From the NCBI GenBank assembly GCA_973895155.1, contig OZ316891.1:1045324-1109323 (forward strand): 64,000 nt of DNA. Reading direction: 5' to 3'. A model generated the notes under the pieces. It searched no databases. It was not told where the DNA came from and saw only the letters and a list, made by a program, of their open reading frames with translations. The stretch's first letter is position 1. The number at the start of each line of letters is the position of its first letter. The position numbers and the translations under genes were made by a program. The DNA comes from Marsupella aquatica. Its lineage: Eukaryota > Plantae > Marchantiophyta. Below, in pieces: positions 2,772 through 30,800 of the stretch.

Positions 2772-3099
2772 CTCTAGTCCTCAGCTAACTACCTGGTAGT
2801 GTTACTTCTAACTATCCGTATGAATCTCCTCGGGAAGTTCTAGAAGGTAAAACCAATGAGTTTTCCCTCTATACTTGAGAGCTAACTAGAACTAAACCGT
2901 AGCTGACAAAGTGTCAGATAGAGCAGACATACTTATAAATAAACTACCAACCTAATACTAGCTCTTGTTACCCATATGTATCTCCTCGGGAAATTCTAGA
3001 CAGAAAACCTATGTTCCCCTCTTCTCCATGAGGGTTAACTAGAATTAGACCGTAGCCGGTACATACCGGATAGAGAATACGTATACAAGAAAACTAACA

Positions 3100-6000: not shown

Positions 6001-7061
6001 GCTCCCAAAGAGATCAAATTCCACTTCAAATCTGGAATGTGACGAATGTTTGTCAACGTATGCACAATTCCATCAAACATTTGAATGCGCACTGTACCTA
6101 TGCCAATGACTTGACAGGGTTGATCATTCCCCATCAAGACGTTCCCTGATTTTGGCTCATAGGTGCAAAAGACCTCCTTGTCATGGCACATATGAAAGGA
6201 ACATGCAGAATCTAAAATCCACTCCGGTCCCCCACCCTGGGAATCGGTACATAAGGCAAAACCAACATCATCATCAGTAGTAACAAAACTCGCCTGACTT
6301 TGAATGCTACCACCACTCCTGCAATTCCTTTTAATGTGGCCCTTCTGACCACATTTCCAGTACTCAACACCCTTTGAGTCACGTGACTTCGATCTAGCCT
6401 TGGTTTTACTAGAGGAGCCTGTAAAACGCTCTCGTGACCTGCCCCTAGTAACTGCTAGTGCTGATCCAGATGAAGAAGAAGAACTGTTGTGTATCTTCTT
6501 TCGCATTTTGTCTGACAGTAGAGTATTCACTGTCTCATCATAGGTCAACGTTGTCTTGCCATACAAGATTGTCTGGACCAGGTTCTCATATGACCGTGGC
6601 AAGGAAGTAAGCAAATGAAGGGCCTTTTTCTCATCCTCCACCTTCTCATTGAGACTCGCCAACTCTGCAATGATTAAATTAAAACCATCAATATGTTCGT
6701 GCATAGTTTTACCTTCAGCCATCTTGAAGTTCATCAACTTCAAGCTCGTGTATAGTCGATTTGTCAACGACTTCTTCTCATACATTAGCTTCAGTCGATC
6801 CCACAGCTTTGTAACTGTGTCCTCCATCATAACCTGAAGTAAAACTTTAGGTGCCAAGTGGAGCCTAATCAAACTGAGAGCACAATTGCCAATGTCTTCC
6901 CACTCCTCATTGGTCATGGAGGATGGCTTGGTGCTGAATGCTGAACCCAAGCCCTGGGAAACAAGAACGTCCTTCATTTGTACTTTCCATAACGTGAAGT
7001 TATTGCGCCCGGTGAATTTCTCCACTTCATACTTTGCACTGGTCACCTTTCGAGATGCCAT
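3100..7061 (-). pseudogene. Copia gag-pol polyprotein with an in-frame stop (~5082) and a frameshift (~3921-3930)
   Basis: Gag with degenerate zinc knuckle (YWKCGQKGHIKRNC); protease WILDSACSFHM; integrase (HARLGH, HSDVW, RSDNGGEY, NGVSERLNRTL); RT (YKARLVAKGF, LYVDDMLI); RNase H (YVDSDYGG, KHIDIRYHF). TGA stands where Cys is expected in 'K*VFLGY'. Confidence 0.95.
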
Positions 7062-8044
7062 GACAATGTCCCCTACTCTTACTCGAGTGTCCTTTTGATC
7101 GCAAGGGGGTCAAAATGTCATTTCGGACCCCCTCAAGGAATCTTTTTAATAAAAAATTCCATGCACCTCAGTTTCCTAAACCTATTTTCAGGCCCCTCCC
7201 TAACTCTCCTGGGAACACATCTGCAAAAAATCTCAGAAAACGGAACCGTTTGCCTTGCCAAATCGCTTATTTACCGCTGAATTTTAACGTTCTGGAAATT
7301 GAGAATATAGGGAATAAAAGTACAAGGGGCGTTTGGCCCTGCGCAAGGGGCGAAATGCCCTGTGGCACCACAAACAGGACAGCGCCTGTTTGCATCGCGC
7401 CTCACCACCCCAAGCGCCCTGCCGCTCCCCCTTCTGCCCTATCACCCTTCCTGTACCCGGCCGAACGCCCTTCCCGCGCCCTGCCAAATGGCCAAAGTTA
7501 AACCCGCTTTGACTGCCCGTATCTCGGCCGTCTGATGTCCGATCTATCTATAATTTATATGGTTGGAACGAGCGCGACGAGATCTTTCCAACAAGCCTAT
7601 GGGCGACCCAAGATCATGACTTTCGAAAATTGACCTAAATTCGTACCATCATACGACCGTCACTTTGAGTTCATGGCTATGGCTGCCTGAGCTTAATAGC
7701 CAACTTCAAAATCAAGTTAGTGGCCGCACACACCACCAAAATGTTTCCCGTTCGTTGTAAACTGATCCTCTTCCCGTTTGTAACTCCCCGGATCAAATCA
7801 ACAACAAAAATGAACAAGCAAAACCCGGATTGCGCTCACATTCAAGAAAACCGTCAAAAACCCGTCGAACACGAAGGAAATTCTTCCCACCTTCAAATTG
7901 GGCGCAATCTTCCGCCTAAACAACACAGGGACAGACCAAAGTCTGTGTTACTCCGCCTAGAAGATGATTCACACTCATATCCCGCACCGAATGCCACAAA
8001 TCGGTCACGATGAGCCCCAAGCGCTTCTCAATCTCGGTTCCCAA

Positions 8045-8056
8045 GCTCTGATACCA
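8045..8056 (-). promoter_or_regulatory. Primer binding site complementary to initiator tRNA-Met
   Basis: Minus strand TGGTATCAGAGC 2 nt inside the 5' LTR. Confidence 0.92.
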
Positions 8057-8058
8057 AT

Positions 8059-8421
8059 TGTTGGGATATGATCTAGACCGAACGAGATAGCGTCAACGCA
8101 TGTGAACAACATCCATAGACTCCAACAATGAAAGTACGTGGTTCACCCGTCTGGGCTATGTCCACGGCCGTGAGAGAAATCCAGTAATACACACCTATTA
8201 CATCCGCCATAGCCAACGTGCTAGAGCTCCTCCTCTCACTCCCTCACTCTGTTTTCTAAAGAGTGAACCTTCAAATGTGAGCACAAGTTTGTGTTACCCT
8301 TGGGTATACCCCCTCCCATGGTCTATGGGAACCTGGAACTCAAACTAGTGCTATCCTAGTATAGTGAAGTCTAGCTAGTACTATGGAAGTATATAAGTTA
8401 TACTAGAGGCATAATCTAACA
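8059..8421 (-). repeat. 5' LTR of copia element
   Basis: TG...CA; about 11 substitutions and 1 indel versus the other LTR by manual count. Confidence 0.95.
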
Positions 8422-9080: not shown

Positions 9081-12000
9081 TCCACACTTGAAGGACAAGT
9101 GTGCTAGATCAACTTATAACTAGCTTAAACTCACCCAGATGACCGTCAGCGGAAGCGTCTTTTAGGTGAAGCTTTAGGTTGAAAATTCATATCCCGCAAG
9201 GATGCACTGATTGCACTAGCAATTAGCAAAACCAATATCACATTTTCATCTGGTCTCACCTGCAACCCACAATCAATCCATACCCACTTATATCATGAAT
9301 GGATGAATGTGACATCCAATCTTACTATAAAAGCACATTCAAACTAAAGTCTAGTTCTAGAGTAAAACCTCTAGACCCTAATTCCCAATACAGACAGAAC
9401 TGATAATGAGGACAATTAAAACTTAAAATGATGATGCTGGACAAATGTGATATTCATTTGACTCTAAGTAAAGACCAAAAAATGAAATGAAGGTGGACAA
9501 AAAATAAGGATGGGACAGAGATCATCAAAAATAGCGCACACATTTTATTGTGCAAGATTTTCTTCTTCATATCTAATACATTCAAGAAAGGGTAAGTAAC
9601 CGGCTAGCATTGTTATATTATCAAACTGTGCAACTCTCTTACCACGTAGTTTTCTATCTTTATCTGGTGTCTATATTGGCTAAATCAAGGGAAAATGAAT
9701 CTTGACAAATGCCGTGTGAATCAAAGCATTGAAAAACTTCATGGACACTACTGATTGAAGCCTTGGAGAGAAATTGTCAATGAAAGAGTTGATGGTACCT
9801 CAGTAGAAGCTGCCTGCCAATTGACAACTGCTGTAGCTTTCCCCATTGGAGCATCTGGTGTGTAGCGGATCAGTGTTAGATACTCAATCTCATGCCGGGT
9901 CTCTTGCACATTGTTTGGCCCTTCTGCTGCCTTGCACTCCAACAATCTCCCACTCAGTAATTGCATCTGCAACTTAACTTACGCTACATTAGCCATAGGG
10001 CCACCTGAAACAATTAAGGTTAAATTTCAAGATGTTCCAAATTAAAAAGCTGAACAAAAAACAAATCTATGATAGCTCTCAGTAGAGATCCGTTCAATAT
10101 TTCAAGTACTCACAAACAAGGCTGTTCTTTGCTAGTGCATTGCAATTGTAGTACATACATATCTGAAATTCTTGGAAGGTCTGACGCTATAAACAATATA
10201 AGTGAAGATAAACATATCTTTTCATTGAAGAGATGGATTATAACCGCAAGAGCCACAAAGAGAACAATGCATCTGTGAGGGCATTCCTAGAAAAGATCTA
10301 TTTACCGGGTAGCCAATCACACCGGGTACTGCTCGGAGCTCACAATTTAGACGTCCATCGGACACAGGTTTATGCACAGTAAGCATAGCAACCCCGTCAA
10401 GCAATGACCAGTGTCTTTTAACCATAGTGTGTCCCTGTTCCACACCCAACTGATTTGTTTGGCCCATCCCTGCAAGAACATTGAATTGAAAATGATAAGT
10501 CCATTCAGATGAACCTCTTTGCATGCATGGTAGCTAGCACCGTTAACTCTGTGATGGTCGTTGCAATCTGCACAATTGGCTTAGACTTTCTCAGGCTGGT
10601 TGAAGCACTGATCGACCCAATACAGAGTTCCCAGTGAGGACGGGACGAAACATTTGGCTTCATGAAAATTACTATTATCTACACTCTCCCAACTGCCCCA
10701 CCTTTACTTATAAAAGTCGTGATAACCAATCTTCTTCCTTCTGTCTGTTGCTCTTACCATAATCCCTTGCAATGCATTCTTGAGTTCTAGCAAGAAGACT
10801 TTGATGCCTGACCACGTACTCTGTTGTGATTAAAACTTTATGACCAATGCAACACCTTCTTAATGAGTTAAATTAATTTTGTTAGATGATTAAATTCCCG
10901 GATGAAATTATGCCATTTGGTAAGAACTAAGAGACCCGGAATGACTACCCCTTGGGAAAAAGCGAGTGAGAAAACAACACCAAACAAGGACCTGCCAACA
11001 TCTTCAAGTAGTGGCCTGGCTACGAGTTATGCACAAACTTACAAAGGGATGGAACCTGAACGAGAGATTCGTATTGATAATTTTTTGTCTGGTGGTATGA
11101 CAATTCTCTCAATTGTCCTTCATATACTTCAATAACTATTTCACCCCCAGAAACCCTTGCTGGCTGGATGTCCTTTATCTTGGCTCCCTTTGCCCACCTG
11201 GACATCAGTTTCAATGGGGTCAAATTATGATCTCTACTTTGCAGGAGTCGATCTACTGGATTGAAGTAGACAACGTTTTTGGAACTAGAAAAGTAATGGT
11301 TTCCCAACCTAGGCCAGGTTCCTTTGCACATACTGCTCCAACCTTTGTTGTGCAGATCGTACAACCTGTTTTCAAAAGCAACTAATCCTACATGGGAAGA
11401 GCTTAACGAGAGCCAAAAATAATGTGCCTAATCCCTTCCGTAAAAGGTCTTAACATGCTCTCTTGATAAATGCTCTCACTGATAAACTAGAGCATGATAA
11501 TAATTTATTATCATGCTCTAGTTTAGCTGACAAAAAGTCTCGTTGCCCGCCTTCAACAATCTTGGTCCAAGATTTTGGGCCCTCCAAACACTTGCTATCT
11601 TCAAAATCCTGATCATTGACTACTCATTCATTTCAGTTGATGTGGAATTCAGAAAGCTCGCTCCATCCTTTGTGTACATACCTAGTCCGGACAACAAACC
11701 GTTCCTCGTGACTACTGTAGCCCATAACTCTCATTGTAATCCAGCGCCCTTCTTGCCAAATTTTATCAGCTGGCACCAACTTGGCGACTTGAATGCCCTT
11801 GTCATCAGTAACAGGCGCTGGCATCATATGGAAAAGTTGAGGTGCAGGCATTGGAGGCGTAATTGTCATGGAGAAGTGGAGTCTAGGAGAACCACCAGGG
11901 AACTGCTGAGGAGCACCATATCACCGTCAGTATCTAGAAATTACTCAAGATCCAATCGGGTTCCTCAACCCAAGTGCGCCAGGGGACTTAGTGCAACTAC

Positions 12001-13144
12001 TTCAAAATACTCATAAAAGTTCCTGTCTGGTGGAGTGTCTTGTATCAAAATTTGTAGGGTATGATTTGTGAGGTTTGATCTGCCTCTATGCACTGCGGTG
12101 GGCAGCTAAAATAATTAAGAGAATTCTCCGAATGAGAATTAAACCTGAGGTTTTTATGGACAAGACCTAAGAGATATCACCCCATCATAAATGGACAATG
12201 TAGCAATACTCGAAGCTTCTATTCTAGTTCTAGCTTGCACTCTATATCTGGTCTTTGGTGAGTACGAAGCTCAGATGGATAGAGGGGTTTGTTCTGCCCA
12301 TCCAGTGGGCAGGCCAGTGGGTAGAGTAAGTATCCAGTTTACACCTAAAAGAAAAAAATGACCAACTGTTTTTGGAAAGACTTATTTTTGAGAAGGACAC
12401 ATCAAGTGGATTTATGAGGGGCCCCAATGGACTGTATTGTTGTTGGGTTTGACTTGTGCATCTCATGTTTGGCAAACTTGTGCATTATTTGGACAACTTT
12501 TGTATCTATGTTCACTTATTTCAAATGTTACCACATGTTCTTTGATGTCCAATCTATTACCTTCCAAAATTTGAGATTTTAATGAGATCATTTATTTCAT
12601 TTCCAGTAAGCACAAAAATGATCCAATATTACAAACCAATTGCCAATGGATGTTTAAGTTTTGTGAGGAACACCCAAGCAGATTGAATATTAGGGGCAAA
12701 TTAGGGACACTTCACTTTTGAGAATGCATGAACAACAAATTGTCACTTTAATGGCCCTTTTAGGTCAATTAGGTCTAATATAAAGCATAAATAAAACAAA
12801 GAGGGAGTAAGGGAAAAGAATCTACAACAAGTTGACACGTAGTCAGAGAAGTTTTGGAACAAACCTGTTTATATCCATGTGCCACCTGTTTATATCCATG
12901 TGCCGCCTGTTTATATCCATGTTTCATCCAGCTCCAATTCGTAAGAGAAGGCCCTGAATTCAACAGGTTTCTGTGGCACTCGATCAAAACCTCTCCGATG
13001 GATTCGGCTTTCTTTTCGGACTCTGGAATCAGGAAAAACCGTAATTTACGCAGCAAGCTTCTCTGTTCGCCTTCAACACGTACCTTTTCAGTGAATCTCA
13101 TAAGCTCCATGCGCAGGCCCTGCATTCAAATTTTAAACAATTAA

Positions 13145-13349
13145 ACCACACCTGCCACTATAAAAGTCTCATTCCATGGTTCACTACTCACCATAAAAGG
13201 AGGAACACTAGCACCTTTCTTGGAGTACTTGCCAAAAACAGCTTTTGTAGTCAGCACCTTTTGTGGAGCTCAAAGCCTATTTCTGAACTTGTACTCTTCA
13301 GAATGAGAGCTACGGGTTACCCGTAGCCCTTTATAGGGGCAGGTGTGGT
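13145..13349. mobile_element. 205-bp non-autonomous TTAA-specific element (Kolobok/piggyBac-type MITE)
   Basis: TIR ACCACACCTGCC(A/C)CTATAAA, 19/20 match; TTAA at 13141-13144 and 13350-13353. Confidence 0.9.
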
Positions 13350-13465
13350 TTAAACCGCCAGTGTCCATATAAATAGCACATGCGCCAAGACCCGGGCAGT
13401 TCATTTTCTCCCCAGATGCCCAGCGAAGGCTCAGCAAAAGGGCTCCGCAATACGTGTTGTGTAGG

Positions 13466-13631
13466 AAGTATGCCTAAACGTTTTCGCTCCTATGCATTCG
13501 TCAGGAGGGTTTGTGACACGTCCATGAGCATGAAAGCCTCTCTGCCTAGCAAGTATGCCTAAACATTTTCGCTCCTATGCATTCGTCAGGAGGGTTTGTG
13601 ACACGTCCATGAGCATGAAAGCCTCTCTGCC
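13466..13631. repeat. 85-bp direct tandem duplication, left subterminal region of the transposon
   Basis: AAGTATGCCTAAAC...GCCTCTCTGCC at 13466 and 13551, nearly identical. Confidence 0.9.
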
Positions 13632-15865
13632 GCTATGTTGCCATAGCCATGGGCCGGGGTTACAGCTGAGCTGGGCTCGGAAATCTTCTCCCTTTGCCGC
13701 GTTCCATACGGTCTTCTCCTTCTTGACTCGCCGAATCCCGCTGCCAAGTCCTAATCCCCAATACCGGCCAAGAAGTTTCGCTCACCTTGGAAATCAATGC
13801 TTCGTGTCTTTACGATGTGTAGTTGGTTTGAAGGGGAGAGGCCGAATTTGGCTAAGTGCTCTGCACGTTTTTCTATTGGCATGCGCTACAAGGTTGGTGG
13901 GAGACGGAGCATTCGAACAAGACTCCCATAAATAAACAACTCATAAATGAAGAATTGAAGCTTGCTCATATCGATCACTTCATCATAGAAAGTGCAAATC
14001 TGTCATCAAACTTCACAACTTCAAAACTTCCCAATTACTGCTGCTAATGTCTAGATCCCTACAGATGGCAGGCAAGAAACATTCATTCGAGCACTGCCTC
14101 TACTGAGATGTCCCTCACTTGCACTTGGAGACTTCCAAATTGAACCTGGGACTGGAACCATAATTCTCACATTGGACCGCAATGTGGGCTGCGGCATCAC
14201 TTAGGTCTCAAGAGAAGGTTAGTGCGATAGTTCAGTCACCGACAGCCAAGGAAAACGCAGCTCGTTGTAAAGTTGGGGCCACCCTTCAGCACAAAACTCA
14301 TCCAGCTCAACAACCACTCCACCTCACCAACTCGGTAATTTGGTGTTGTTGACATGCAGGCATAGTGAGATACGAGGTGGGTTTCTGAAATTCGGAGCTC
14401 TGATGGTACCCTGTCGACTGTGCTCTCATGAACAGCTCCCAAGTCTCATTCAATTCATGATTCCGGACAGGAAGGAAGAGCTATTATTCGTTATCTGGTG
14501 ACAATCTTCTCAGACAGTGAGAGATTATATTGATTCCAAGTCTATTATAAGGTGCAATGGCACAACCGAGCTGTCACGCTGAAGCCATTACGGGAAGATT
14601 GTGCTTGATTTCCGTCTCTGCTAATTTGCATGCACCAGTGAGCTCTTTACGTTTGCTGAATACAAGATATCACATTAATAAGGCAAGATCGGGCTTCAAC
14701 CTTTCATTGATACCGGACACAGAACCATCAGCCATAGTGGACACAAGCCATCGAGACAACAGGATCGGCTTCACAGAACTCTGCGAACCTTCTTTGTCTA
14801 TCCCCTCAATGAAGCACAAGCTCTTCGAACAAGGAAAATTTTGGCAATGCTTCTCCTTCAGTTGGACACTTGAAAACGCAGAGGACCCAAAGAGTGAAAG
14901 CGATGCATTTATCGGTGATAAAGAGGACTTCACTACGGCTGAAGCTCGGGGGCGATTGAGTTGCGGTCATTGGTTTGCACAAAATGTACACAAGCATTGT
15001 TTGCAACAGTTTTTAGACGGACCCCGCCTCTAGCAGCCTTCAAGCACCTGCACATCCCAATGCACTTTGGCAAATTCATCGTCTACAACCTGGGGAAATG
15101 ATCGATAAACCTCATTCAAACTGGGCTGAACGGAAACGCTCCATGCAAGTATGTCGATTCAAACAAAGTCCATGAAAAGTTTTAATGTAGCTTCGGGATG
15201 ATGTGAGTGTACATTATGCAAAATTCACAACATCCAATTGAGGTCCGTAGTTGTGTCCTGTCTTGCGTGATGGAGGTCCAAGAAAGTATTCATTACTTGA
15301 TCTAGAAGTGAAAGACCAACGTATTGAGTCTTCTCACATTGAGGCTACAAAAGTATGCACTTTCAGGGAGGTTACAAACAAATCCGCCCTCGGCTTCAAA
15401 ATGACGGGAGTTGAAAGGGAACTAGCCTCCTTTGTCTCGTCCTAGGAGCTCACATTATGACCATGTGTTTTGTAGAACCTGCCAAAGATCTGGCCACTGA
15501 CGCGCAGCTTTGCCGAGTGAAACAACAAAGATTTTTTTCAGACCTTGCCATTTACAGTACTAGGGTACCATACTGTATCTGGATTTGCTTTGACGGAAGG
15601 TATGAAACAAACTATCCGCTTAGAGCATATTTGGGAATGGTGTGGGGCTCCTTTTTTCTTACTTGCTGCAATTATTATCCTCAGTGTATTCTTATGGAGT
15701 ACATCTTGCTTCAGACATTGTATTCATGGACCTGGTGTGAACTCGTGCATTTTCATTCATAACTGCATTCTTGCAAGCATGCCTTTTGACTTACTAGACA
15801 AATACAAGGACATCTAATTCACAAACTCTTGTTTGTTGTATTGTTAGGTTGCTAGAGTAGGACAA

Positions 15866-18800
15866 ATGGTCCGTCCACCGGCTGCAATTGATTATCACCA
15901 AGTTGGAGGCAGTCTTCGAGTAAGGCTTCCTGGAAGTCATATACGTAGATACCATGCCTTACAGGGTGCCCTCAAAATGTCTCATGGGAGGATTATGGCT
16001 TGGCTCATGGATGGTATGTCCATGCAAATATCAGCTGCTATTAGTGCTCATGACGGACACGATGAAGAAGTAGGGGATGTAATCGCATTTGAGGGTCCTG
16101 ATGACTTTGGATGGATAAATAATCATCACCTTGCTAATGACGAGGACTTGGGAGCATTTGGGGTGATTGCTGAGGTACTTTTAATAACAATTTTCATTCT
16201 ACTTTGAACTTGCTTTGCAGATTTTAATTTAATTGGAGTAGACCTCTTTCACCATCTCTCCTTTTCTATGTGTTTAAAAGCTTGGGTTATCCAAATTTTT
16301 AGAGGTTTTATCTTTGCTGGTACATCATGTTTTAGTATTGTTAACCTATGTTTGTATTTATTTATTGCAGCCATTTTGTGGTGCATCATCATCCCTTCCA
16401 AACGATGACGATTCCAATTTTGATGCGGCATCACCTTCACATGATGATCAAGTTCATGCATACTTCAACACGAGTGTATTTGACCATATTCAGTCTGGGG
16501 AGGAGGATGCAGAGCACATTTTTGACTCCAACATAGAAATGGAAGATGGTTCTATGATATCCAATTCCCAGGTAACTTAGAAGCTGAGCTTTTTAAAAAA
16601 AAATTCTTTGTGCTACATTTGTTCAATACATTAATTTTATGTACCCTAACCCTAAACAGAAGTCAAATGAGGATGGACCCATTCGTTTGCTGGATGTGGC
16701 TGATCCAACAGCATTTGGATTAGACGAAATGGTTTTCATGGATTCTGGATTTGAAGAGAATCCAACTCAGGTATTATATTATTGCACATTCTTTTACTTG
16801 TCATTTGCATCAATTCATAGTCTCTTGTAGTTCTTCATTGTGAATACTACCTTTTTTGTTAACTTACTAATTAAATATTGTATGTTAATTTTTGTAGGCA
16901 TCTAGTTCTTCTGAGCAAATAGAAGTTGACTGCAGTTTGGATTCAGAGTATGAGCCATCGTCTCAAGAAACTACAACCGAGTTAGACCCTGAGAGTCTGG
17001 TGGAGTATGCTTTTTGGCAAAAGAGTAAGGTCCATGAATTTTTCCAGGAGTTTTGTGTGAAATGTCGTATTGAAGGTTGTGACGGTAGGTACTCGGTTGA
17101 GGACATTGTGACACACCATCAGTTGTGGATATTGAAGCTAAAGTGCCCAATAGGGCATGCACAATCTTTCATGACCGGAGAAAATGAACTTTACAGAGGT
17201 ATGTCATCTCCTTAATTTTCTTATATACTTATGTCTTTTTGTACCTAAATGACTTAATATTGTATGTAACAAAAAGTTTCTAATTTTATTTAATTTATGA
17301 ATACAGGTGTTCCTGCAATCACTGGATTGATTTACCACTTTGCTCTTTCTGCTGGTCTAACACACAACATGATAAGTGAACTCTTCTCTCACATTCAAAT
17401 CCATGTTCCAAGAAATACACATTGGTTCCGATTTCAAAATGGAGCCCGAAGAGACATTGGATGGATTGGAGCAGTATTGCAAGTTTGGAATAGTAAGAAA
17501 CAAAGGTTGCAACGAGGCCTAGCAGAAAGAGACGGTATATATGAGTCTTACTTAAATTAGTGCACAAGCATGTATTATTTACATTGAGTAATGAATTTCT
17601 CATTTTACTGGATATCAAGTTGTTAGAGCATGCTTGTAAATGATGGTTACTAAACATTATTTTGTGGTTTATGATGATTGTAGATTCCACTCCATTGATT
17701 CTATATGTGGATTGTCGTTGGGACTCATCACGTTCTGGATATCATGGCACTGTTCCCGTGATAGACATGGCTACTGGTAAGATAGTAGAGCTTGTAACAA
17801 TTGACCGGGTTGAGGCTGGGAGTTCAGGCGCTATTGAGGCAATTGGTGTTCGTCGTGCCTTGGAACATCTTCAGAATGTTGGGATTGCAATTAATGAGGT
17901 TGTTCACGATGATAACAACGTTGTTAATAATATTCTTTGTGAATTCAATATTGATAACCAAAAGGATTTGTGGCACAAATGCAAAAATCTATTGAAGCAG
18001 TTTAACAAAGAGTTAGCAAATGTGAAAGAAACAGCGCCTGCTAGTGGGATTGATGGTGCAACATCCTTGGAGGAATTGGGTAGATTCACTGTCCGAGTGT
18101 TGTCAGATTGGTGTAAGAACCAAAATTTGAGACATACGGGTAATAAGACAGAGTTGGTACATCGCATTGGAAGACATAGAGGATTGCCGGAGGAGGACAT
18201 CACATTGCGCACCAGGAGGCAGTTGAAGTATCCAGAATTGACAGAGAAGCAACTTGGTGATAAATTGAAGAGTTGGTTTTACTATTGTTGTTGCAATGCA
18301 AAAGAAAGGTAGGATGATAACTATGGTATTTATTTGCATTTACATGGCTTCAATGAATGTTACTATTGGATTTAATTGAGCTGACTTAATGCTTGAGTTG
18401 AATTTTAATGACTATTTACAGGGGAAATGATGATGCTGCCATGTTAGCTAGGGAGATAATCACTGCAGCTGATCACTGGGCTGGTAACCATGAACCTTGC
18501 AAAAGTTTTCTACCTGAGCGCAAGTGTTGTGAGGAAGGTGCAATTTATAGTCCATACTATGTTGCGGGTAAGTTAAATCCTACTATCAACTATACCTGGT
18601 TGTAAGTAGTTAGGACATAAATAAATGTTTGGGTTGTTATGTAATCTTTTAATATTTCTAATACTTTTTTAAAATGGATACTTTTGGATTTTACAGGGGG
18701 CCCTACACATAGAGCTCTAAAGCAATGGTTGTTTAAGAATGTCACTACTGGCAATGCTCGCTTTTACACTAGAGCCCGAGCAAACTTCCTTAGTGAAACA

Positions 18801-19058
18801 TTTCATGGCAACATCAACAAATATGCTATGAAGAGGATCCATTTTGCCATGACCCACGAAGCCCGCATGGCATGTGCTGCAATGTGCTGGAATGAGAACA
18901 TCGGTCGGGAGGTGTTACGAGTTAGAACACGACAACCTAGTAATACTTGCACTCGTCAACGTACATCCAGAGTTCGTGACCTTGTTCCTAGAAGCATAAG
19001 ATGGAAGAAAGATGTGGCTCGTATCATATTTGAAAGAGGTGTAGACTATGATTCATGA
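15866..19058 (+). CDS. Kolobok-like DDE transposase, 760 aa, 8 exons (15866-16174, 16371-16571, 16660-16770, 16898-17198, 17307-17534, 17684-18308, 18422-18567, 18697-19058)
   Basis: All introns GT-AG with consistent phases (2283 nt, open frame). Candidate catalytic residues in YVDCRWDS, VVHDDN and LSETFHG; also QKDLWHKCK, NKYAMKR..EARMACAAMCWNEN, a Cys/His cluster (CVKC..C..CPIGH) and a SAP-like motif (FTVRVLSDWCKNQNLRHTGNKTELVHRI). Confidence 0.88.
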
Positions 19059-20191
19059 ACACTTCATAAATTTATCTTATTTCTTGCATTATCTTTTCTT
19101 GCTTTAAGTGTACCATATTTCCATGTCATCAACTTGCATTATTTATTTTTTGCTCAATAAGTCCTTTTTTGTACGTTTTACTCAAAAACTCCCCAAACTG
19201 AATCCCATTGAATGTGTACAAAATGGATTTATTATTGATGACCACTATGTTAGAAGTGAAGAGCTTGTCAATAGCTTTCTATTGGGCCTAACATTAGGTG
19301 TAATAGAGTGCACGTTTCTTAGATATCCAATTTTGAAACAAGTGGTCCAAGAGCCTGCCCTTGCAAAAATGAATTTTTTTGAAAGTTCTCAAGTGGAACC
19401 CAAACTCACTAAGTAGGGTAAGTAGCACCCCCTGATTCCGAATATGAACTCAGTTTTATGAGATCATGTCCCCTTACCTTAATATCCGTGTCTACTAGTA
19501 AGATAGTAGAGCCATGGCCCAAGTATCCTTCACTTGCTCTGCCTATGAAGAGTAGCATGCATGGCATGGCATTACAGAAGAACCTTACTAGTAGATATAT
19601 AAATTTAAATATTTTTCTAGAATTTGACAATACTCCAAAGGGGAATTGAACCCCTCATGCTGCCATCCAGTAGGAGTTCCAACCCAGAGAAGGGGGAAGG
19701 AGGCACAAGCCAAAGAAACACATGGAAAGAGAGTAGCACAAAGAACCCATACAATGACAATACTAGTAATAAACAAATAAATAAACATAAAACACAAGTG
19801 AAACTCAAAAAGTAAATGTGGAAAAGAGGATGGTATTTGCCTTGCAACTCCCAAGTTAGGGCTCTACATTGCAGTTGGGAGAAGGAGGCACATGATGCCA
19901 AACAAAAACAATAAAATAGTATAGTAGAACAAAGAAAGCATGGAACAAGAAGTAACTATGGATGAAAAGATAACCACACAACCTTTGAAAACTACAGTCA
20001 TACACCAACATGGTGTTTGCTTAGCAGCTCCTAGGTGGCCTGCACTTGCAGTTGGGAAACGAAGGGAGGCACATGGCACATGCAAACCAAAGACCCAAAA
20101 AATGGTAGAACAAATAACCCAAGCATGGAAAAATAACTCAAGTGAGAAGAACAATGGTGAAAAGAAAAACAAAAAAAAACAACCTCCAAAC

Positions 20192-20948
20192 CTAAAACCG
20201 GAAACCCACATGTTGTTCACCTGGTAGCTCCCAAGTGGACTGCACTGTAGTTGTGACCGCTGCCAGGAAGGGTGTTCTATCCGCAAAACTAGCAACATGT
20301 GCTAGTTTGTGGTACACAATGTACCTTTGTCTGCGAGGGACAGTTTCAGTGTATGCCCATGCAGCACACATATGAAAAGCCTGAGCTGTCGCGGGAGAAA
20401 GAGCCTGGGCAAAGTTGAGGGCATCAAGATTTTCGTCTATTGCTGTGCAAAAATCTGGGAACCTAGCAACAATGTCTACATGCCTCAAAAGTCGGAATTT
20501 CCGACGTCCTGGTGGAGGGACAGGCCATGACAAGCGGTATATGCCATTTCCATAGGAGATCAATTCAGCTGGTCTGTTTTGATGCTCGACGCTCCTACAA
20601 CATGGCCAATTGAAATTCAAGATTCATGCACTTATAAACCTTAGAAAAGTTGCTCATGATGCTAGTTATTGTCAATGAATACATCTTATTTTATAAATGG
20701 TATATTTAAACAAGACAAAACAACTATTGTGCAAGAAAGTGCATGATGGAAAGTAAATTCTACACAAACTTATAAATTTTGTGCATGTAAGACCCAATTA
20801 CATGATTGAGAAAGAAAAGGGGCAATTTCTATGCATACAAACTTACAAGCCAAAAGCAAAGCAGACATGAGCAAAAATAGTTTGAAGGGGAAGTAGCAAG
20901 TTTAGGGTTTTTTGTTTGCAAATATATAATTTACCTGGGATTATTCAT
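20192..20948 (-). CDS. KolX-like / P2X7 intracellular-domain-like accessory protein, 138 aa, 2 coding exons (20935-20948, 20192-20594)
   Basis: ATG AAT AAT CCC AG|gtaa...tgtag|G AGC joins in frame. C-terminus RQRYIVYHKL..DRTPFLAAVTTTVQSTWELPGEQHVGFRF resembles the recalled KolX/P2X7-tail pattern R-Y-AYR...R..LP.C.V..IR..FP...Y.GF; tail-to-tail with the transposase. Confidence 0.7.
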
Positions 20949-22349
20949 GCTGAGTGACTGGAAGGTCGATGAACAATGACAACAACTGCACAGCAGAAGG
21001 ATGCATAGCATAAAAATGCAATGAATAAGAGAGTGGGTTGCATAAGTGATTTGAGCATGCCCTTTCTTTGATAGTCCTCCTAAAAAAAGAGTAAACTCAA
21101 GGGGACATAATGATTATGAGAATTTTATTTGGTTTTGGATGCAGTAATCGAATGCACCGTCTTGGCAGGGCAGGGCAGTGAAGGGCAGGGAAGGGAACTA
21201 GGGAAGGGAAGGGAAACAATGAGAAGAGGTCGGGAGGACAAACCAAAAAACTCCTCGAGTTTGTAGTAGAGAAGGAGATCTGCTCTATTTCTGAGAAGGG
21301 TGATTGAAGCAGTGGAAGAGTTCGTGTGGCCAGCTAATTAATGTTCAAGGTTCCTGCTTTTCGTCATCTACTTGCAATGTAGTCTCTAGTCTGCTGTTGT
21401 TGATGGGCGAGTCTCTAGGTACATTGCAGGCATTTCTTGGGTTCCGAGGCTTCTTCTTTTGGAGCTGCAAAATTTAGATCTTTCCCAGTGAAAGCTGAAA
21501 ACGTATGGAGTGTTCCGGGAAAGTGCAGGACTCGTTCGATGGGAACTAAGGCAAGGGAAAGGGAGATCCAAAGATGGCTGAAGTTTCAAAGATAAGCTAG
21601 CGTAGCGGGAGGGGGAGGCCGTTTCTACTGCATCACGGCGCAACGGGAGTAGGAGGGGAAAGCAAATCCACCTACTAGCAATCAAGGCCGGGGCTCAATG
21701 AATGGTGAAACCGGATCAGCAGTGGCACCACTACAGAGAAAGCCCAATTAGCAAATTGAGCGGATTTGTTCTTGACATGTGGGACAAGTTGTTCTGAACG
21801 AGAAATAGAAACTATGGCATTCCAATTTGACTCACTCTCAGAACTGCAGGATAGGACTAAAGCCCGAGCTCGTTCAGTATGATAATCCACCGTGCCAAGC
21901 AAATTCGTTGAGTAAGAAATGTGAAAGAAACTGAAGGCCAAGCTCAATCAGTATGACAATCCACCTTGCCAACCAAACTCGTAGAGTAAGAAATGTGAAG
22001 GAAACTCCTACTTCTCTGCTGACAACTTGCGCTGAACATGTGAAATCTCTGTGAGTCAGTGGCTCTGTTGATGTATATATAGAGCAGAATTAGGTGCGTA
22101 GTAGAAGGAGAATTGCACGAGTTTGCTACTGAACAAGTATCTGCAGTAACATTGGTTCATAAGTAGTTGCTTATGATTCATTACGATCCATCCTGCACTT
22201 GCGCAGCATGGGCGGAGGAAAGGGACATAAAATTTGCCTAATTTTCTTTAGCAGCATGGGTTCGAATCAGGATAAATGGTCGACTTGATGTGGGCTGAAC
22301 ACTTGCACGACTCTAGGTTGCTAAGCACTAGAGAGCAAGTCTGCTCCTG

Positions 22350-22512
22350 ACACTCGCATAGCATGGGCGGAGTGTTGCTGCAAAAGGATCTCTCGTGCCC
22401 TCCGCAAACACTCACGCAGCATGGGCGGAGTGTTGCTGCAGAAGGATCTCTCGCGCCCTCTGCAAACACTCGCACAGCATGATCGACTGAACTGTCTCGC
22501 GCCCTCCGCAAA
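22350..22512. repeat. 58-bp tandem repeat (~2.8 units), right subterminal region of the transposon
   Basis: ACACTC..GCATGGGCGGAGTGTTGCTGCA.AAGGATCTCTCG.GCCCTC.GCAA units begin at 22350, 22408 and 22466 (third degenerate). Confidence 0.85.
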
Positions 22513-25500
22513 TGTCGTAAGGACACCAAAAGCCATTTCCCTCACACCTGACCCGGCCAAAAAGCGCCGGCCCCACTGACTGGCCAAAAACTATCGAGGA
22601 TGCACGGAGCTGGACATGCCCTATATTAAGAAACCTGGTGGATCCAGGTTTTGGCGGTGGACAGTGGCGGTTTAAGCATAAGCAACCATCAATGGGTCGG
22701 ATTTAACCAGTCATAGTAGAAAGCTATGTGCAGCCTAAGGAATCACCTTGCCACAGGTCAGTTCGAAAACTGTACATAAAATGGAAGATTGTTCTTCAAG
22801 CCAAATCTGAATTTAGTGTACACGTTACAATCTTCATCTCTCTCTCAAGGTGCACCCATTGAGTGTCCGAAAACTATCAGGCAAGAAAGCAAACGAGGTT
22901 AAGCTCGAGGCCTCCTATTGCTGTATGGTTGAAATCACCTCAAAACGATAAAGCGTTTGTTTAAGGGCAGCAATATGCCCTAATTTTATCAGTGAAATTC
23001 CTCTCCTCCAATTGACCAAAATCTTCCTATTACCTTTGTGGATAGCTCCGCTTGCAAGGAGAATCCTTCATTCCATGTAACCTCGTGCCGAGTGCATGGA
23101 ACCGCGGCGGTGGTGAGGTTCAGGTCAGCGCATTTTCTCAATGGCGATACCTTGAGAAAGTAACGACTTCTACGCCCGAACTTAGAAGTGGGATTCACAT
23201 TTGCGGCACCTAATACCACCAAGTTAACCTGCAAATATAGAAACTCTCATACTTCAATCCTCTCCCCAGATATAGGTGGGTTTCAACGCCCATCTCTCGA
23301 ATGAATGTCGGGCAAATGACTGTCTTACGTTCATGAAAAGACTTCTCATGTCGTGTTAGACAGGAAGACGAGTCTCTCTACGTCACAATATAACAATTTC
23401 CCAGGACTGCGAAACACGGTCTTAAGTTCATACCTGCACTGTCTGCCTCTGGGAACGTACTTGTCCCAGCTGCAGCTGATTCACTGGATAACGCAATTCG
23501 GGATCAGCATTCGGAGTCGGAGGGGCTGCTCTAGTTGGCTCTGATCCTCTGTACAAAGAGCCTGCATGCTCATACACCGTGCCAAAGGTAGCCTGCCAAG
23601 GTGACAATGAAATTCAGTTGCGTAGTAATTCTTTGCTACAAGACAGTCCATGTCACAGCTTCGTTTCTCATTTTGACAGAATTAGTCCTTAGTACATTTT
23701 ATGCGTCCTCCATTTTATGCTAGGATCAGTACACAACCGTATTTCTTCACCAACTGAAGTCTTGCCGTAAAACTGAGATATTCATGCTTTAATTTGTAGG
23801 TGCTGTCTTGGTGAGTAAAGTCTTCGAAGTACTGTTTTTGGATTCGCTCAATCGAAAAAGATTTCCAATCCAAACTTGAACAAGTTAATCCTTCAATTTT
23901 AATAAACGCAACACCTCCTGCAATTGCTAGTAAGGACATTGTCCTGCTAAGTTCAAACAGAGTAATGCATTGGTGGAACTAGTTATTCACCAGCCATTGC
24001 TGACAAGTATCACCAAAGCTGGTCTGCGGCTTTGCATTGGGTTCCAGATCGCTGTCAGGGTCGTCATGATCCAGAACTGTTCCCATGCAGAAGAATGTAT
24101 TTGCCCTGTAGGCAGTGGGAGAGAGGTGCCGTGAGTGCCACAATAGGTCAATGTCGTATGTGGGGACAACAAATGGCCGTGGACCTCCTTTGGCCTCCTT
24201 TTCCTTAGCCAGTTTTATGAGGTGAAGGAATCCTCGGTACCTCGCCAGAGCCACCTTCAGATATTTGTCGTCAGACATCCATGGCCGGCATACCTGCAGA
24301 ATGATGTGAGTTCCACCAAAATTAGAAGGGTCGAATCCTTAACTATCAAACATTCAAGTCTCCATATCTCGACTGTCCCTTGCAAGTTCTGAGTTTACTT
24401 ACCAGAATTTCCCCTGCCTCACGGAGTTACTACAGATTCATTGGGTTTAGTGTCAACCTATTCCTACTCGCAAACTAGCAATGTGGCTTCTTCTTCGATT
24501 CGGTCGTTACCGCAGTCGTTCCATTCTCTAGCTCTGGGCTTTCATTCCGGACCCAAGTGCAGTTTCTCTGGTCCGCGTTCGATCTTAGTGGACTCTCACT
24601 CATATCCTTCACTTTAACAAATCTAACTTTCCGCGGTACATACATTCATGAACGTTTGAGTTATTTGTAACCTTCAACACGAGGGTTCATATTAAATATC
24701 CTGAGTAACAACTAACCTGGTAATAAAACGAGGTCTGCCTGTCAATTGCCGCAATTAGATCATAACCAATGGTAGCATGAAACTTCTGCTGCTGTTGCCA
24801 AGCCGCATCATCACCGGCTCTGATGAAATCGTAAGGTACATCTGGGTAAGCAGTAGTCCAGACTTGGGTGGCGACAATTGTTATGTTTGAACCTGGAGGA
24901 CCAACATCGACAAGCTTTCCAAAAAGTTGCAGGCAATCCTTTGAATATTGCACCTGCAGAGAAAAATAAATACAATCATGCTATTAGTACGTTCGGTACT
25001 GAAAACGATAGTCGTTCTAAATCAACTGGCCGGCCTTGCAGACCTCCAAATATGTTCAACAAGCTTTCCAAAAAGTTGCAGGCAATCCATTCAATATTGC
25101 ACCTGCACAGAAAACAGATCAATGAACTGGTGACCTTCTCCAAATATGCTCTCCACGAGCAAACTAAGGCTTTCCCATGAGGAAGCCTTGTAATCGTTTA
25201 GAGAAAACCCTGAACGCCATCTTACATGCTCCAGTGTACACAAACAGTCAATGGAGAGCTCTGGTGAGCGAGAAACAAAAGAGATTCAGAATCTTACTGG
25301 ATCGAGCTTATGGTAATGCCACACCCATGCACAATCAAGGGGCGGTTGCAGGGCATCACTGGGCGTGTATTTGCTCGCAAGGGGAAGCCAGCAGTTCAAA
25401 TATCTGCACCCAAAGCAGTCACCAAGGTCACTTTAGCAGCCGCAATTCCAATGAATTAAGTGTCCAGCTTTCTTGCCTGGATAGCGAGGAACCAAATGGG

Positions 25501-26497
25501 ATGGACCTGATCTTCAAATCTGATTGTCGCACAAGTCAACATTGAACAATGTGATATAAACACTTCATGGAGAGGATCTCAATTGGAAAACTCACATCCT
25601 TGGACATGGAGATCGAATTGCCGAACTTACCTAGCAACAGCACATTCAAGCACCTGACGATCCACAGTGCCCAAAAATCTGAGTTCCTGCTTAGTCGCAG
25701 CGACCAAATCTATGCTAATCTGCACCTGCTTGGCCTTCTCCCATTCCATTGAGGCCTGCCCTGGTGACGCCATCAGGCTTGATCGTCCTTAATAATCCAC
25801 CCTCCGCTCAGTCTTAATTTGCACCATGACGGAGCGAATTTCTCTTATAGTTCTCTTACATGCAGCTTACAGTGCCAAACTTTTGCTACAAGTCAGCGTG
25901 AGCACACTCTTCAAATTGAAAGCAGGGAATAGGAAAGAGAAATTTCCCTCCCAAGACTACGAAATTGACGACAATTACATGCTGGTAAAGAATCAACTGC
26001 CTTCTTCCTCTGATACTCTCTTCACTCCACTCCACCCAATAGTTTCAGCTCTACACTCCGCAGATCGCTCATGTAGGCGATGAAAATCATGAATGACGTC
26101 TGCGAGCACGCCAACGGGCCGCTCAAATTTCAGCTGTCAAATGAGTGTGCACATCGCCACACAGGTGAGAGCTGGTCAAGTCAACCAACGTTTCTGAAGC
26201 ACTCTCTGGTAAAATTCCAGAAGAATCGTTAGATCCCGCGTTAGATGCATCTCCATGCATATAACGCAGCCAAATTCTCAAGTCGAATTTACCGAGCTTT
26301 ATCGTCTGTCACGCCGAATCATTGGAAACTATGTTCGTGGCTCGTTATCGACAACCGAAGGAAACGCATGACAGACACGACACGAGCTGCAGATTCGTCG
26401 CTATGAGTAAATCCAGAACCAAACACCGGAGAAGGACTCTAATTTCCAGGCAGGTCCTTCATGGATGGATTGTCAATAGCTCACACTGAACACCATG

Positions 26498-27501
26498 AGT
26501 TAAATCTATGTCAAGTTAATGTTCTCCCACTTTTCCCCCTTAGTTAAATCTATGTCAAGTTAATGCTCTCCCACTTTCCCTGGGCGCCGTACACTTCACG
26601 TCCCAATCCCCGATGCTGCTGCCCGCTCCGGCCCAAGTTTGGCAGAACATAAACCAATATTCTACGATTTAACTCATGAGCTCCGGCCTGATCAACTTTG
26701 CGCCATCGACTTCAGGTTTATGTTTTGGCACCCAAAACTTTTTGTCGGCATTGACTTTGTGCCATCAATTTTTTGGAAAGAAGTGTTGCCAAAACATAAA
26801 ACATCACTCCATAGAGAATAAGTATTTGGCACAACATAAACCAAGACTATCAATCAAGACTCTCAACCAAAGTATTAGGCTCCCGTTGAATGCTTAGACT
26901 CTATTACAAAATAGGTATGACTCCATTGGAAAGAAGTGTTGCCAGAACATAAACCCTGACTCCATCGAGAAGAAGCATTTGGCAAAACATCTACCAAGAC
27001 TCTAGAATGATGACTCTTAACCAAAATACTAGGTTGTGCTTAGACACTTAGATTCTATTACCAAACAAGCATGACTCCCTTGGAAATATGTGTTGCCAAA
27101 ATATTAATAATCACAACTCCATAGAGAATAAGTATTTGGCACAACATAAACCAAGACACTATAAATCATGACTCTTAACCAAAGTACTAGGTTTGCCCTG
27201 AACACTTAGACTCTATTGGAAAGAAGTGTTACCAAACATAAACCAAAATTCCACAAGGAAGAAATCGATGACACAAACTTAAGTCGTCAGGCCGGAGCGA
27301 GCGAAGGTGCCAAAACATAAACCCAAAGTTGATGACCCAAAGTTTATCGGGCTGGTCCAGGAGCGCATGACAAAATGGTAGAGTATTGGTTTATGTTTTG
27401 CCAAACTTGGGCCAGAGCGGGCAGCAACATCGGGGACAGGGATGGGCAGTGTACTGCATCCCGGGAAAGTGGGGGAGCATTAACTTGACGTAGATTTAAC
27501 T
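26498..27501. mobile_element. ~1-kb non-coding foldback/MULE-like element with long imperfect TIRs and internal direct repeats
   Basis: 26542-~26735 is the imperfect reverse complement of ~27305-27501; the first 44 bp of the left arm are duplicated (26498, 26542); the interior consists of GCCAAAACATAAACC-type subrepeats; no clear TSD. Confidence 0.75.
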
Positions 27502-27689
27502 TGGGGTCACGGAACGCAAAGCCCTTTCATGACGGCACAAGCTCTATGCCCGTGCATGCACGTCGCAAGGAGGGAGTTGACCCTGGGCATTTATGGGGCA
27601 GGGAATACACATTTTTCTCATCAATAGTCACTAAAAACAACCAAGAGTGCATATTTCTTTCATCAATGGTCAGTGAAAACAGCCGGTCT

Positions 27690-27878: not shown

Positions 27879-30800
27879 GAAAGACCAAAAAATGGCGGGA
27901 TCCCTTAATATAGCTGTAGATTAGGGTGTGACTGCCAAAGTAAGCCATAAGAACCATCTGCTGGTTTGCGTCTGAGTTTGGGTTCTCTGTTAATGTGACA
28001 TAAACCACAACAATGAACAAGGAAATGATAAACCATTGCAAGATCTTAGAGACTTACTTATTTTCTGAAATAGGTTTGTGGAATCCTTCAGGAGGTCATC
28101 TGTGCCCATTGAAATTCTGCCCAAGCAGAACACAAACAGGAGTTTAATGAAAAAGTGCAAGGAAGAGAGAAGCTCATCCCAAATGTTTAATTGCTTGGCT
28201 AACATAGGGGGTTTGCTCTAGCATATTGCCAATTAAAACTAAAAAATATTTCAATATATGAATATCAAGCTATTACAATTGAACTCAATTTTTGCAAAAT
28301 GTGGTCAATGGAAGTTTCAAAGACCAACCTTGTTATCTGGGCTTCAATTAACAAAGCACAAACAAAAGCTATGGCTTAACCTAGCTTCAACAGTAGACTC
28401 AAGCAGTGACTCTGGGATGGCAGAGCACTTGCAGTGGGACCCAGGGGCCCTCACTCAATAGAAAATAACCAAACCCGCTTGTAAACGACGCCCCTTATAA
28501 TAAGCTTCAATATTTTATGTGGTACTTACAAAAATTTATTAATAACTAAAATTAATAATTTAATCCTATTTATGAAAGTTAAGCCCGTATGGACCAAGAG
28601 GTTTCATTTGCCCATCCCATGGACTGTGGTCAACACACAATGCTTCACTTTACACACAAAGTTTTCATTGTCAGGCTACCTTTAGGAGGGCACTCCACTT
28701 TTGAGAAGGATGCCCCAAGTAGTTTTTCCATGTGTCTCGACCAACTGTAAAAAGTTAATTTTCAGCAAGCTTGTGCATTTATTTGGACAACTTTTGGATC
28801 TATGTTTCAGCTCAAAAGTTTCCAGCATGTCCTCTGATGTCCAATCTAGTTTTCCATTTTTTCTTTAAATCTTTATTCAATGGAGAACCAAAGAAAGAAC
28901 AAAAACCAGCCTGGGAGGAGAAGGCAGGAAAGAACAAGAGCAATTAAGGGGGCAATAAAAGGAGCACACCAGTGAAGATGAAGGGCAACCTCCACCCTGA
29001 CCCCGATGTCCAATCTAATTACCTGACAAAGTTTCATTTTTCTGAAACCATTTTCTCCATTGCCAATGAGTGCAACTATGGTCAAATATTATAAACTAAC
29101 TGCCAATGGACACTTCACTTTGTGCAGAACGCTCTCAGTACTTACTTCAGCAGGAGCACCAACTTTACCACTTTAAGGAAATTTGCTTCACTTTTGTTAA
29201 GGATGCCCTGAGTAATTTACATGATTGAGCCACAACTTGCCACCATGCATATTATTCAATGGAAACCTGTTTACATGTCACATATGAATCAAAACTGTAA
29301 AGAGTGCTATCCGAGCACATTTTGATGTTTGAGTCAGTCTATCCCAGCTTTGGAAATCCATGATTGGGGGCTTCACATGAAACCCCTCGTCCACCCAAGC
29401 TTTACTTTCTCCTATTTATAGAACCCTTCTGGTCATTTTATAATACTCTAAATTTACTATTATATGGCCTGTACGGCAGAAAGAATTTTGTTTGTGATTG
29501 CACATTGTTATTTTGCCCTTTGGTATAAACCAAAAAAAATACTCAGAACCAAAATTCACAAAACCGTCACCCCTTGGACCCCACCTTATGTAATCAAAGA
29601 TATGGGTGCGAACAAATGTAGATGGGTTTTTACATTGTTTGTGCTATCATTACATCTATTCTAAATGTTTTAAGAATAAAGTTATGGGTTCACTCTTAGT
29701 GGGCCCAAAAGTGCCACACCATAGCAATCTAGTGACTAAGAAACTTTGTTTACTATAGGTAAACATTAAACAATGTATTTGTCCCAATCATGGTGGGACA
29801 TGTCGGCCTTCGCGATACATGGCGTGCCCATATTAATTGCCCTTGAGAAAGCTACTCGAGAAGCTTGTTTAGAAGTAACACATTTAGTCATTATGACCAG
29901 ACACGCCATTTCTAAAAAATAGACAATATATCTGAAAAATGAGTTACAAAACAATTGTGCCTTTTGCACCAGGCTCCATACTAAGGGTTAGGGCTTGGAC
30001 ACTATGAGCACACTGCCTAATAAACATGGATACCATAGTCTCTTCAGTCCCTAAGACAGGCATTGGAACTTGTTTAAAAACTTCAACAGCTAGCCATGCC
30101 AAAAGATTGCATAACCAAAGGTCTAGTACTACATTGCAAACAAAACAGTTGGCATCACTACCACAAACTGTATCTTCAATATGACAAACAACATATACAT
30201 GATCTTTGACAGTACGATTATTTTTTATTAGACTGAGAGGCAAAATATATATTCAAAACTACACACACACACACACACACATGATGTACCATTCAACTTG
30301 TAAAGTAGGGAAAGAAAAGGAATGGGGAATGATATTTTCCAAAAATTACTCATCTGCATTGCCAAGATACCCGGGGTCCTCACTTCTTTTCTCCCAACCC
30401 CATTGTGCATAGAGAAGTTTGGTATTTTCTAATTCAATTCGGCAAAAGACTTTTAAATTTTGTGTTGAAGAAAACTAGGGGTGTTTTAATCCAATTTTGA
30501 CAATTATAAGACCTGTAGAATTGTTGATGATTGTTTTTAATCACATGCAGGTGGGTACAACAATGAAAGAAGGGGATTGTACCTGTGATTGTAAAAGGTA
30601 TTTTGGGGGGATTCATCTAAACGCGTGATAGTTTTGGGGGTAAACTTTTGCAAAAATGGCACATCTTATGCTCATGAAACCCCTGGGGCCCGCCCTGAGG
30701 CTATTTTTTCTCTGATTTTGTTTGGCATTTGAATAAAAACTTGTTTCAGGAATTTGGCAGACATTGTTTGGTCTGTCCGGCATTCAAATGAAAACATATT

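Follow-up and report, generated by a model that had tools for sequence, protein, structure and literature searches.

We describe a DNA transposon of 9,318 bp (positions 13354–22671) in a 64,000-nt window of the genome of the liverwort Marsupella aquatica (assembly GCA_973895155.1, contig OZ316891.1, positions 1,045,324 to 1,109,323 of the forward strand; "the window" denotes this whole stretch, and positions are counted from its first nucleotide). In our assessment this is very probably a recently inserted, TTAA-flanked transposon with an open DDE (Asp-Asp-Glu) transposase model. It likely belongs to a long-established Kolobok-like branch of green plants, and cut and paste is its likely mode of movement. 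It sits in intron 6 of a minus-strand GRDP-like gene, next to a 205-bp miniature inverted-repeat transposable element (MITE), and one of the five runs analyzed (X1–X5) contains the corresponding site without it.

This empty site was revealed by a 790-nt contig of run X5, which joins positions 13013–13140 (2 differences in 128 nt) to 22672–22846 (4 in 175). The junction from 13140 to 22672 leaves out 9,531 nt and retains one TTAA, whose four letters fit either side. The contig is the orthologous empty allele and proves the TTAA duplication. Since the orthologous site is empty in X5, the insertion is recent, and it postdates a split of about 2% flank divergence; the possible recent activity proposed in the first-pass annotation is thus borne out as a recent insertion. 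Because a host intron surrounds the element and an empty allele exists, contamination is ruled out, as had already been argued from the plant intron. Words of the element were held at 57–84% in four runs (X1–X4, from two studies) versus 3% in X5, which shares its species label with X2; one of X1–X4 may be the source sample of the window, so these four do not count as independent support. Diverged sister copies, 80–99% alike, cover the transposase exons and the region of the second open reading frame (ORF2) in all five runs. X5 has little cover over the spacers of the element, and X3 contains two exact contigs inside the element at 2–3 times the depth of flank contigs; depth is not a copy number here, and neither observation was used as evidence.

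The host protein matches PF07173 in Pfam (E 2e-17). Its intron 6 measures 383 nt without the insertion and 9,914 nt with it. With the insertion in place, a TTAAT is still found immediately 5' of the host acceptor; it may keep a branch point intact, which would explain the undisturbed host frame. A tandem GRDP-like paralogue at ~33–40 kb lacks 13145–22671, that is, both the MITE and the large element, and its exon 3 has a one-base frameshift; the insertion-bearing copy (~8.5–26 kb) is thus open and the insertion-free copy frameshifted. The first-pass annotation had cited this paralogous site in support of the TTAA duplication. The duplication itself stands, through the orthologous allele of X5; the paralogous site reads GTAA. 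In X4, one contig follows the left flank up to 13144 and continues into sequence ~70% like the right flank, which suggests that a third GRDP-like paralogue exists whose site is empty. Host exon 7 also contains a 21-bp tandem repeat (2.9 copies, 12863–12922), encoding an in-frame AAHGYKQ-type repeat that is missing from the paralogue.

The element is flanked by TTAA on both sides (coordinates in Table 1), and its terminal inverted repeats (TIRs), ACCGCCAGTGTCCA / ACCGCCACTGTCCA, are 14 bp long and identical at 13 of 14 positions. Within the window, the TTAA plus TIR pattern occurs just at these two ends (chance mean 0.19 with 3 mismatches). TTAA-flanked inverted pairs identical at 13 or more of 14 positions number five in the window versus none in 20 shuffles: the 9,318-bp element and the MITE next to it account for one each, and the other three fall in a further element at ~26.5–27.5 kb. 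The 14-bp TIRs, the subterminal tandem repeats at both ends and the AC..GT termini, all reported in the first-pass annotation, were found again here, with repeat units of 85 bp on the left and of 74 and 58 bp on the right. Neither the 2.2-kb left spacer nor the right spacer gave a protein match.

The predicted transposase gene has seven GT-AG introns of 88–196 nt (71–79% AT), and its 760 codons contain no internal stop. Exons 1 and 4–8 align with full-length Riccia proteins; exons 2–3, which are acidic, are predicted from splice signals alone. Asp393, Asp459 and Glu674 are the predicted catalytic residues, kept in most relatives. The DxxH motif is DLWH at 478–481, with D/CxxH in all 15 aligned relatives. 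A C2CH-like finger is located at residues ~260–294. A second, His/Cys finger at 610–628 offers H610/H615, C618 and C627 as putative zinc ligands, and its first Cys is kept in 14 of the 14 relatives covering it. The insert between DxxH and this finger is present in 15 of 15 relatives. In the window protein it matches the Pfam SAP domain just below the 23.9 cut-off (23.0 bits, E 6e-5), and nine of 14 alignment members match as well (best E 4e-8). Two Closterium-type proteins, P0118 and P0127, have an extra acidic insertion of ~200 residues right after the SAP-like segment.

The motifs D..R.DS, S...E, HD/SD, D/CxxH, H.G.H..C...C, E.FH and W.N follow in the same order across the 15 relatives, with the exception of some Chara copies without the last E and two fragments without parts. 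By eye, this order matches that of the Kolobok cores in Data S5 of PMC9587614 (here and below, publications are cited for the parts accessible to us), and the best fit is to cores without a CCHC finger (Kolobok-16_CGi, NaeGru, TV and CCri). No SAP-length insert was seen in the Data S5 cores examined. The uninterrupted eight-exon, 760-residue transposase model and the Kolobok-type DDE motif series described in the first-pass annotation both hold. Among the rows listed for X5 (40 of 960), 15 of 28 exonic differences are synonymous, and 12 of 18 from codon 306 onward; for X1–X4 the rows listed give 7 of 17, all of these being small, filtered samples.

An AlphaFold model of a Riccia relative (P0001; mean pLDDT, the model's local confidence score, 63, core 80–90) contains an RNase H core with a helical insertion. 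It matches Hermes (Z 11.8, root-mean-square deviation (rmsd) 11.2, 262 residues aligned) and ISCth4 (Z 11.4, rmsd 6.3, 232 aligned), which are tied, and also integrases. Matches to the core in the Atlas reach 0.82–0.84, PF20700 being a minority label in two of the three; they serve as a lead only.

Riccia proteins lead the sequence searches, with 8 of 10 rows and 28 of 28 rows. The profile search yielded 1,123 representatives at E ≤ 0.001; of the 150 that were listed, 20 were looked up and comprise Riccia (4), Calypogeia fissa (1), Chara braunii (6), Closterium (2), a Pyramimonas/Prorocentrum cluster (1) and unnamed entries (6). Relatives are 28–62% identical to the window transposase, the Calypogeia fissa protein reaching 62% over 350 residues. 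A quick tree of 46 rows preceded an unrooted tree of 17 selected proteins, built without an outgroup. In the latter, the window protein groups with Calypogeia (100/100), and Riccia proteins (96/97) form their sister group within an all-liverwort group (98/97); Chara and Closterium have long branches of their own. Pattern scans for related loci confirmed none of 134 and none of 375 pattern matches in metagenome contigs, none of 42 in viral contigs and none of 54 in prokaryote genomes.

Because relatives occur in liverworts, Chara and Closterium, ancient retention is favored over recent horizontal acquisition. This distribution speaks for a lineage long resident in green plants and against recent transfer from animals or fungi. 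It fits inheritance from a streptophyte or green-plant ancestor, though the unrooted tree would also allow transfer among green lineages. The first-pass annotation had left retention and acquisition undecided; the relatives now tip the choice towards retention, the deep nodes of the tree being without support. That the lineage reached liverworts horizontally, from an alga, protist or fungus, seems unlikely to us. Such an entry would agree with the complete lack of moss, fern and seed-plant names among the 20 matches looked up and the 38 search rows, and with the long algal branches, which are not resolved. However, the Calypogeia-type and Riccia-type proteins are sister groups mirroring a deep liverwort split, Chara and Closterium share the insert, and the patchiness rests on few names, most of the 150 listed matches being unnamed.

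The MITE, left out of the first-pass annotation, shares the left TTAA of the large element and is likewise missing from the X5 empty allele. Over its first 20 bases, 13 are identical to those at the left end of the large element. In X1, X2, X4 and X5, 18–46 contigs per end break off precisely at 13141 or 13353, with unrelated DNA beyond the MITE ends (agreement 0.36–0.41); in X3, 17 contigs stop at 13141. Since the MITE ends meet many unrelated flanks, AC..GT ends with TTAA have been used at many loci. The MITE interior has no match to the large element, and its autonomous partner is for this reason taken to be this family or a sister family, which would move it in trans. The two units may have arrived successively, the second using the TTAA duplicated by the first. 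It is improbable, in our view, that they moved jointly as a 9.5-kb composite extending from the left TIR of the MITE to the right TIR of the element. Both units are indeed missing from the X5 empty allele and from the paralogous site, no MITE-only allele figures among the junctions listed, and KolobokP shows composite-like forms in the superfamily (PMC9587614). Nevertheless, the outer TIRs differ in sequence while each unit has its own matched pair, copies of the MITE have unrelated flanks on both sides, and successive use of a duplicated TTAA requires no special mechanism. Joint movement would change only the sequence of events and would leave the family assignment untouched.

Convergent with the transposase gene, 1,133 nt past its stop, lies ORF2, a predicted two-exon frame of 138 residues on the opposite strand, in agreement with the convergent small gene of the first-pass annotation. 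That annotation had also pointed to KolX, the second gene of the Kol0 lineage, whose product has seven conserved Cys and a P2X7 cytoplasmic ballast fold (PMC9587614). Position and orientation are indeed those of Kolobok second genes. In contrast, ORF2 has two Cys versus the seven conserved in KolX, upstream exons having possibly been missed, and matched no PDB sequence and no Pfam family at E ≤ 10. By eye, the ~45 C-terminal residues follow the R..Y..R.P..W..GF spacing of a Cys-poor KolX-like protein, piggyBac-2_GrCh (Data S6 of PMC9587614). Patterned on this spacing, a search found the motif in 1 of 20,000 shuffles and once in the six frames of the window; the pattern was written after ORF2 had been seen and is a lead only. 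KolX-like proteins of some piggyBac families in the same data set likewise lack most Cys, as ORF2 does, the match to them being by eye and without statistical sequence or fold match. Atlas matches at 0.94 are clusters without a name. A single-sequence model of ORF2 (pLDDT 60, C-terminus below 50) gave generic helical matches only (Z ≤ 6.8), and P2X7 was not listed in two fold searches with this weak model. We regard KolX ancestry of ORF2 as an even bet.

The superfamily assignment can now be weighed. The element has a 4-bp TTAA target-site duplication (TSD), short TIRs, an RNase H-fold DDE transposase, C/DxxH and a finger before the catalytic Glu, all of which are Kolobok characters. Several observations weigh against our reading. 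Kolobok is defined by TTAA together with RR..YY termini (PMC9587614), and the element and the MITE both have AC..GT ends. Foldseek returned no match at E ≤ 0.001 for the P0001 model, whose fold would suit the C/DxxH group without separating Kolobok from hAT or Mutator/IS256. Pfam finds the "Mutator-like" family PF20700 weakly, below its cut-off, in five of 14 members (best E 3.5e-4). Kolobok affinity is thus read from motifs and a modelled fold, and the transposase exon models are predictions. In addition, none of 20 candidates scored in the sequence search for ORF2 homologues, the deep nodes of the protein tree lack support, the Pyramimonas branch is long and the cluster labelled Pyramimonas also holds a copy labelled Prorocentrum, and the paralogous empty site in the window reads GTAA. 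As RR..YY fails and the assignment was made without a tree against reference Kolobok proteins, we class the element as a Kolobok-like variant rather than a proven member. The plant Kolobok lineage announced in the first-pass annotation, which had already noted the deviant ends, is retained in this narrower form on account of TTAA and the DDE motifs.

We give little credence to the view that the element founds a superfamily-level lineage of its own in the C/DxxH group, sister to rather than inside Kolobok and distinguished by AC..GT ends and the SAP insert. The failure of RR..YY at both element and MITE would be expected of such a lineage, as would the lack of a SAP-length insert in the Data S5 cores examined and the 20 looked-up matches, all green-plant or unnamed bar one Prorocentrum label. 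Against it, TTAA, short TIRs, a convergent second gene and a finger between DxxH and Glu are Kolobok traits (PMC9587614), the last of these being found in all Kolobok lineages but Kolobok1, and the motifs match the Kolobok-16_CGi, NaeGru, TV and CCri cores closely by eye.

An atypical Mutator-like element (MULE) or piggyBac element is very improbable and already largely refuted, even with the weak PF20700 matches, the tie of ISCth4 as best fold match and the TTAA target of piggyBac in its favor. MULEs have a TSD of 8–11 bp and piggyBac elements have CC..GG-type ends, whereas the element described here has a fixed 4-bp TTAA and 14-bp TIRs, AC..GT ends and a transposase with C/DxxH; neither Pfam family matched. 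MULE TIRs measure 20–1479 bp and their targets are mostly random (PMC12973397), and piggyBac is not among the C/DxxH superfamilies (PMC9587614). The piggyBac transposase is not among the 50 fold-match rows listed, a result that does not exclude piggyBac. Target and end structure thus speak against the grouping with MuDR or piggyBac that the first-pass annotation had named as fatal to its proposal.

By analogy with the hAT/P/MuDR/Kolobok/Dada group, the N-terminal part of the Kolobok-like transposase would bind the TIRs and subterminal repeats, D393, D459 and E674 would cut at the AC..GT ends, and the ends would join a staggered TTAA, which repair would duplicate. More speculatively, the SAP domain in the helical insertion would add grip on AT-rich target DNA, and ORF2 would act as a Cys-poor, KolX-like accessory protein.

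Table 1. Features of the element, its neighbor MITE and the host locus (window coordinates)
Feature	Position	Strand	Basis
Host GRDP-like (PF07173) gene, 12-exon hand-built model, 796 aa, without internal stop	9146..25773	-	
TTAA, left target copy, equal to the single TTAA of the empty allele; 22–25 nt from the 3' splice site of host intron 6	13141..13144	.	
MITE, 205 bp, AC..GT ends, ~25-bp imperfect TIRs, many genomic copies	13145..13349	.	sequence and run contigs
Left TSD of the large element (also right TSD of the MITE), TTAA	13350..13353	.	sequence
Left TIR, 14 bp, begins AC	13354..13367	+	sequence
Left subterminal tandem repeat, 85 bp x2, 97% identical	13462..13631	.	repeat search
Predicted transposase gene, 8 exons, 760 aa	15866..19058	+	splice signals and protein alignment
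Transposase exons	15866-16174, 16371-16571, 16660-16770, 16898-17198, 17307-17534, 17684-18308, 18422-18567, 18697-19058	+	
SAP-like domain, aa ~515-545, between DxxH and His/Cys finger	18076..18168	+	Pfam
Predicted ORF2, 138 aa, exons 20948-20935 and 20594-20192, 340-nt GT-AG intron, start codon inferred; covered by diverged copies in X1, X2 and X5	20192..20948	-	
Right subterminal tandem repeat, 74 bp x2	21856..22006	.	repeat search
Right subterminal tandem repeat, 58 bp x2.3	22350..22481	.	repeat search
Right TIR, 14 bp, ends GT	22658..22671	-	sequence
Right TTAA copy of the target site	22672..22675	.	sequence and empty allele
Paralogous empty site in second GRDP-like copy, reads GTAA	36413..36419	.	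sequence comparison

Elsewhere in the window, a non-autonomous element of ~1 kb (26497–27502) has TIRs of ~190 bp (83% identity) and an internal 154-bp tandem array. A Copia long terminal repeat (LTR) retrotransposon occupies 2393–8421, with 366-bp LTRs 96.7% identical and a pol region split over several ORFs. Two single ORFs stand out: one of 709 codons (56630–58759), in which a flavin monooxygenase (PF00743) is fused to DUF6314 (PF19834) with no apparent intron, and an apparently intronless one of 440 codons (43793–45115) for a TLDc and EF-hand protein, adjoining ORC5 at 47.1–49.5 kb. An 85-bp dispersed repeat is found at 12472–12556 and 28765–28848, with loose ends at 12534 in 11–16 contigs, and a palindrome with a 220-bp duplicate lies near 61 kb (60847–61475).

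Among plants, Kolobok is listed for chlorophytes and rhodophytes, and Data S5 adds Kolobok_1_KlNi, a CCHC-type family, and Kolobok_1_MicRcc299 from Micromonas (PMC9587614). A hidden Markov model screen of 1,007 plant genomes included Kolobok among 17 superfamilies and found recently active clusters in seven others only (PMC12973397). PMC6337768, PMC13180808 and PMC13501114 carry Kolobok as minor annotation rows only; these angiosperm rows (510 matches over 56,595 bp, 385 matches over 36,480 bp, and part of 67 elements in spinach) were considered as described elements and rejected, being ~100 bp on average where sized and read as library cross-hits. No land-plant Kolobok family is described in the accessible parts of PMC5751038 and PMC8616336, nor in those of bioRxiv 10.1101/2021.09.26.461848, whose supplements may list plant Kolobok matches. 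A search for Kolobok with SAP domain found no literature, and one for Kolobok with Marchantia returned one review with unrelated mentions. In the open literature searched, which leaves Repbase, Dfam and subscription journals outside, we found no description of an intact land-plant Kolobok-like element, and none of the annotated land-plant relatives that the first-pass annotation had named as a counter-argument.

We lean slightly towards the broader view that this is an undescribed, still-mobile TTAA lineage with AC..GT ends, a SAP domain in the catalytic core and a Cys-poor second gene, inherited in green plants since at least the shared ancestor of Chara, Closterium and land plants, jumping in liverworts with high-copy MITEs and missed by Pfam-based plant surveys. 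With an intact, polymorphic Kolobok-like element from a land plant, the standard plant TIR inventory of a handful of superfamilies would gain a superfamily-level lineage, dozens of liverwort and algal proteins now called "SAP domain-containing" would become transposases, and a TTAA MITE family would have a parent. For bryophytes, its plant-native, TTAA-specific transposase would be a candidate tagging tool, and the inserted SAP domain would allow a natural test of its influence on target choice. The chemistry would be ordinary cut and paste, and Kolobok is already present in green algae; what would be new is the land-plant element, its ends, the SAP insert and its own MITEs.

The nearest known proteins are those of Riccia sorocarpa, R. 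fluitans, Calypogeia fissa, Chara braunii and Closterium sp., which belong to the same family and share the same insert; their records read "SAP domain-containing" or hypothetical and make no mention of Kolobok, and many are fragments. Kolobok_1_KlNi, which we take to come from Klebsormidium nitens, and Kolobok_1_MicRcc299 are likewise families with a Kolobok-type DDE core from green plants, broadly defined. Unlike the transposase described here, both have, in the accessible data, a CCHC finger after the first Asp and no SAP insert, and are for this reason regarded as another lineage and not as ancestors. The closest described system is Kol0/Kolobok0 (type Kolobok-1_XT, PMC9587614; XKol, PMC6004289), with a TTAA duplication, short TIRs and a length of 7–14 kb, a DxxH DDE core with a finger before the last Glu, no CCHC finger after the first Asp, and a small second gene. 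The Xenopus elements measure 6.8–13.9 kb, have AG ends and are accompanied by partner MITEs, the T2-MITEs (PMC6004289), as is the element described here. The Marsupella element differs from Kol0 in its AC..GT ends, its SAP-like insert, the two Cys of ORF2 versus seven, and its land-plant host.

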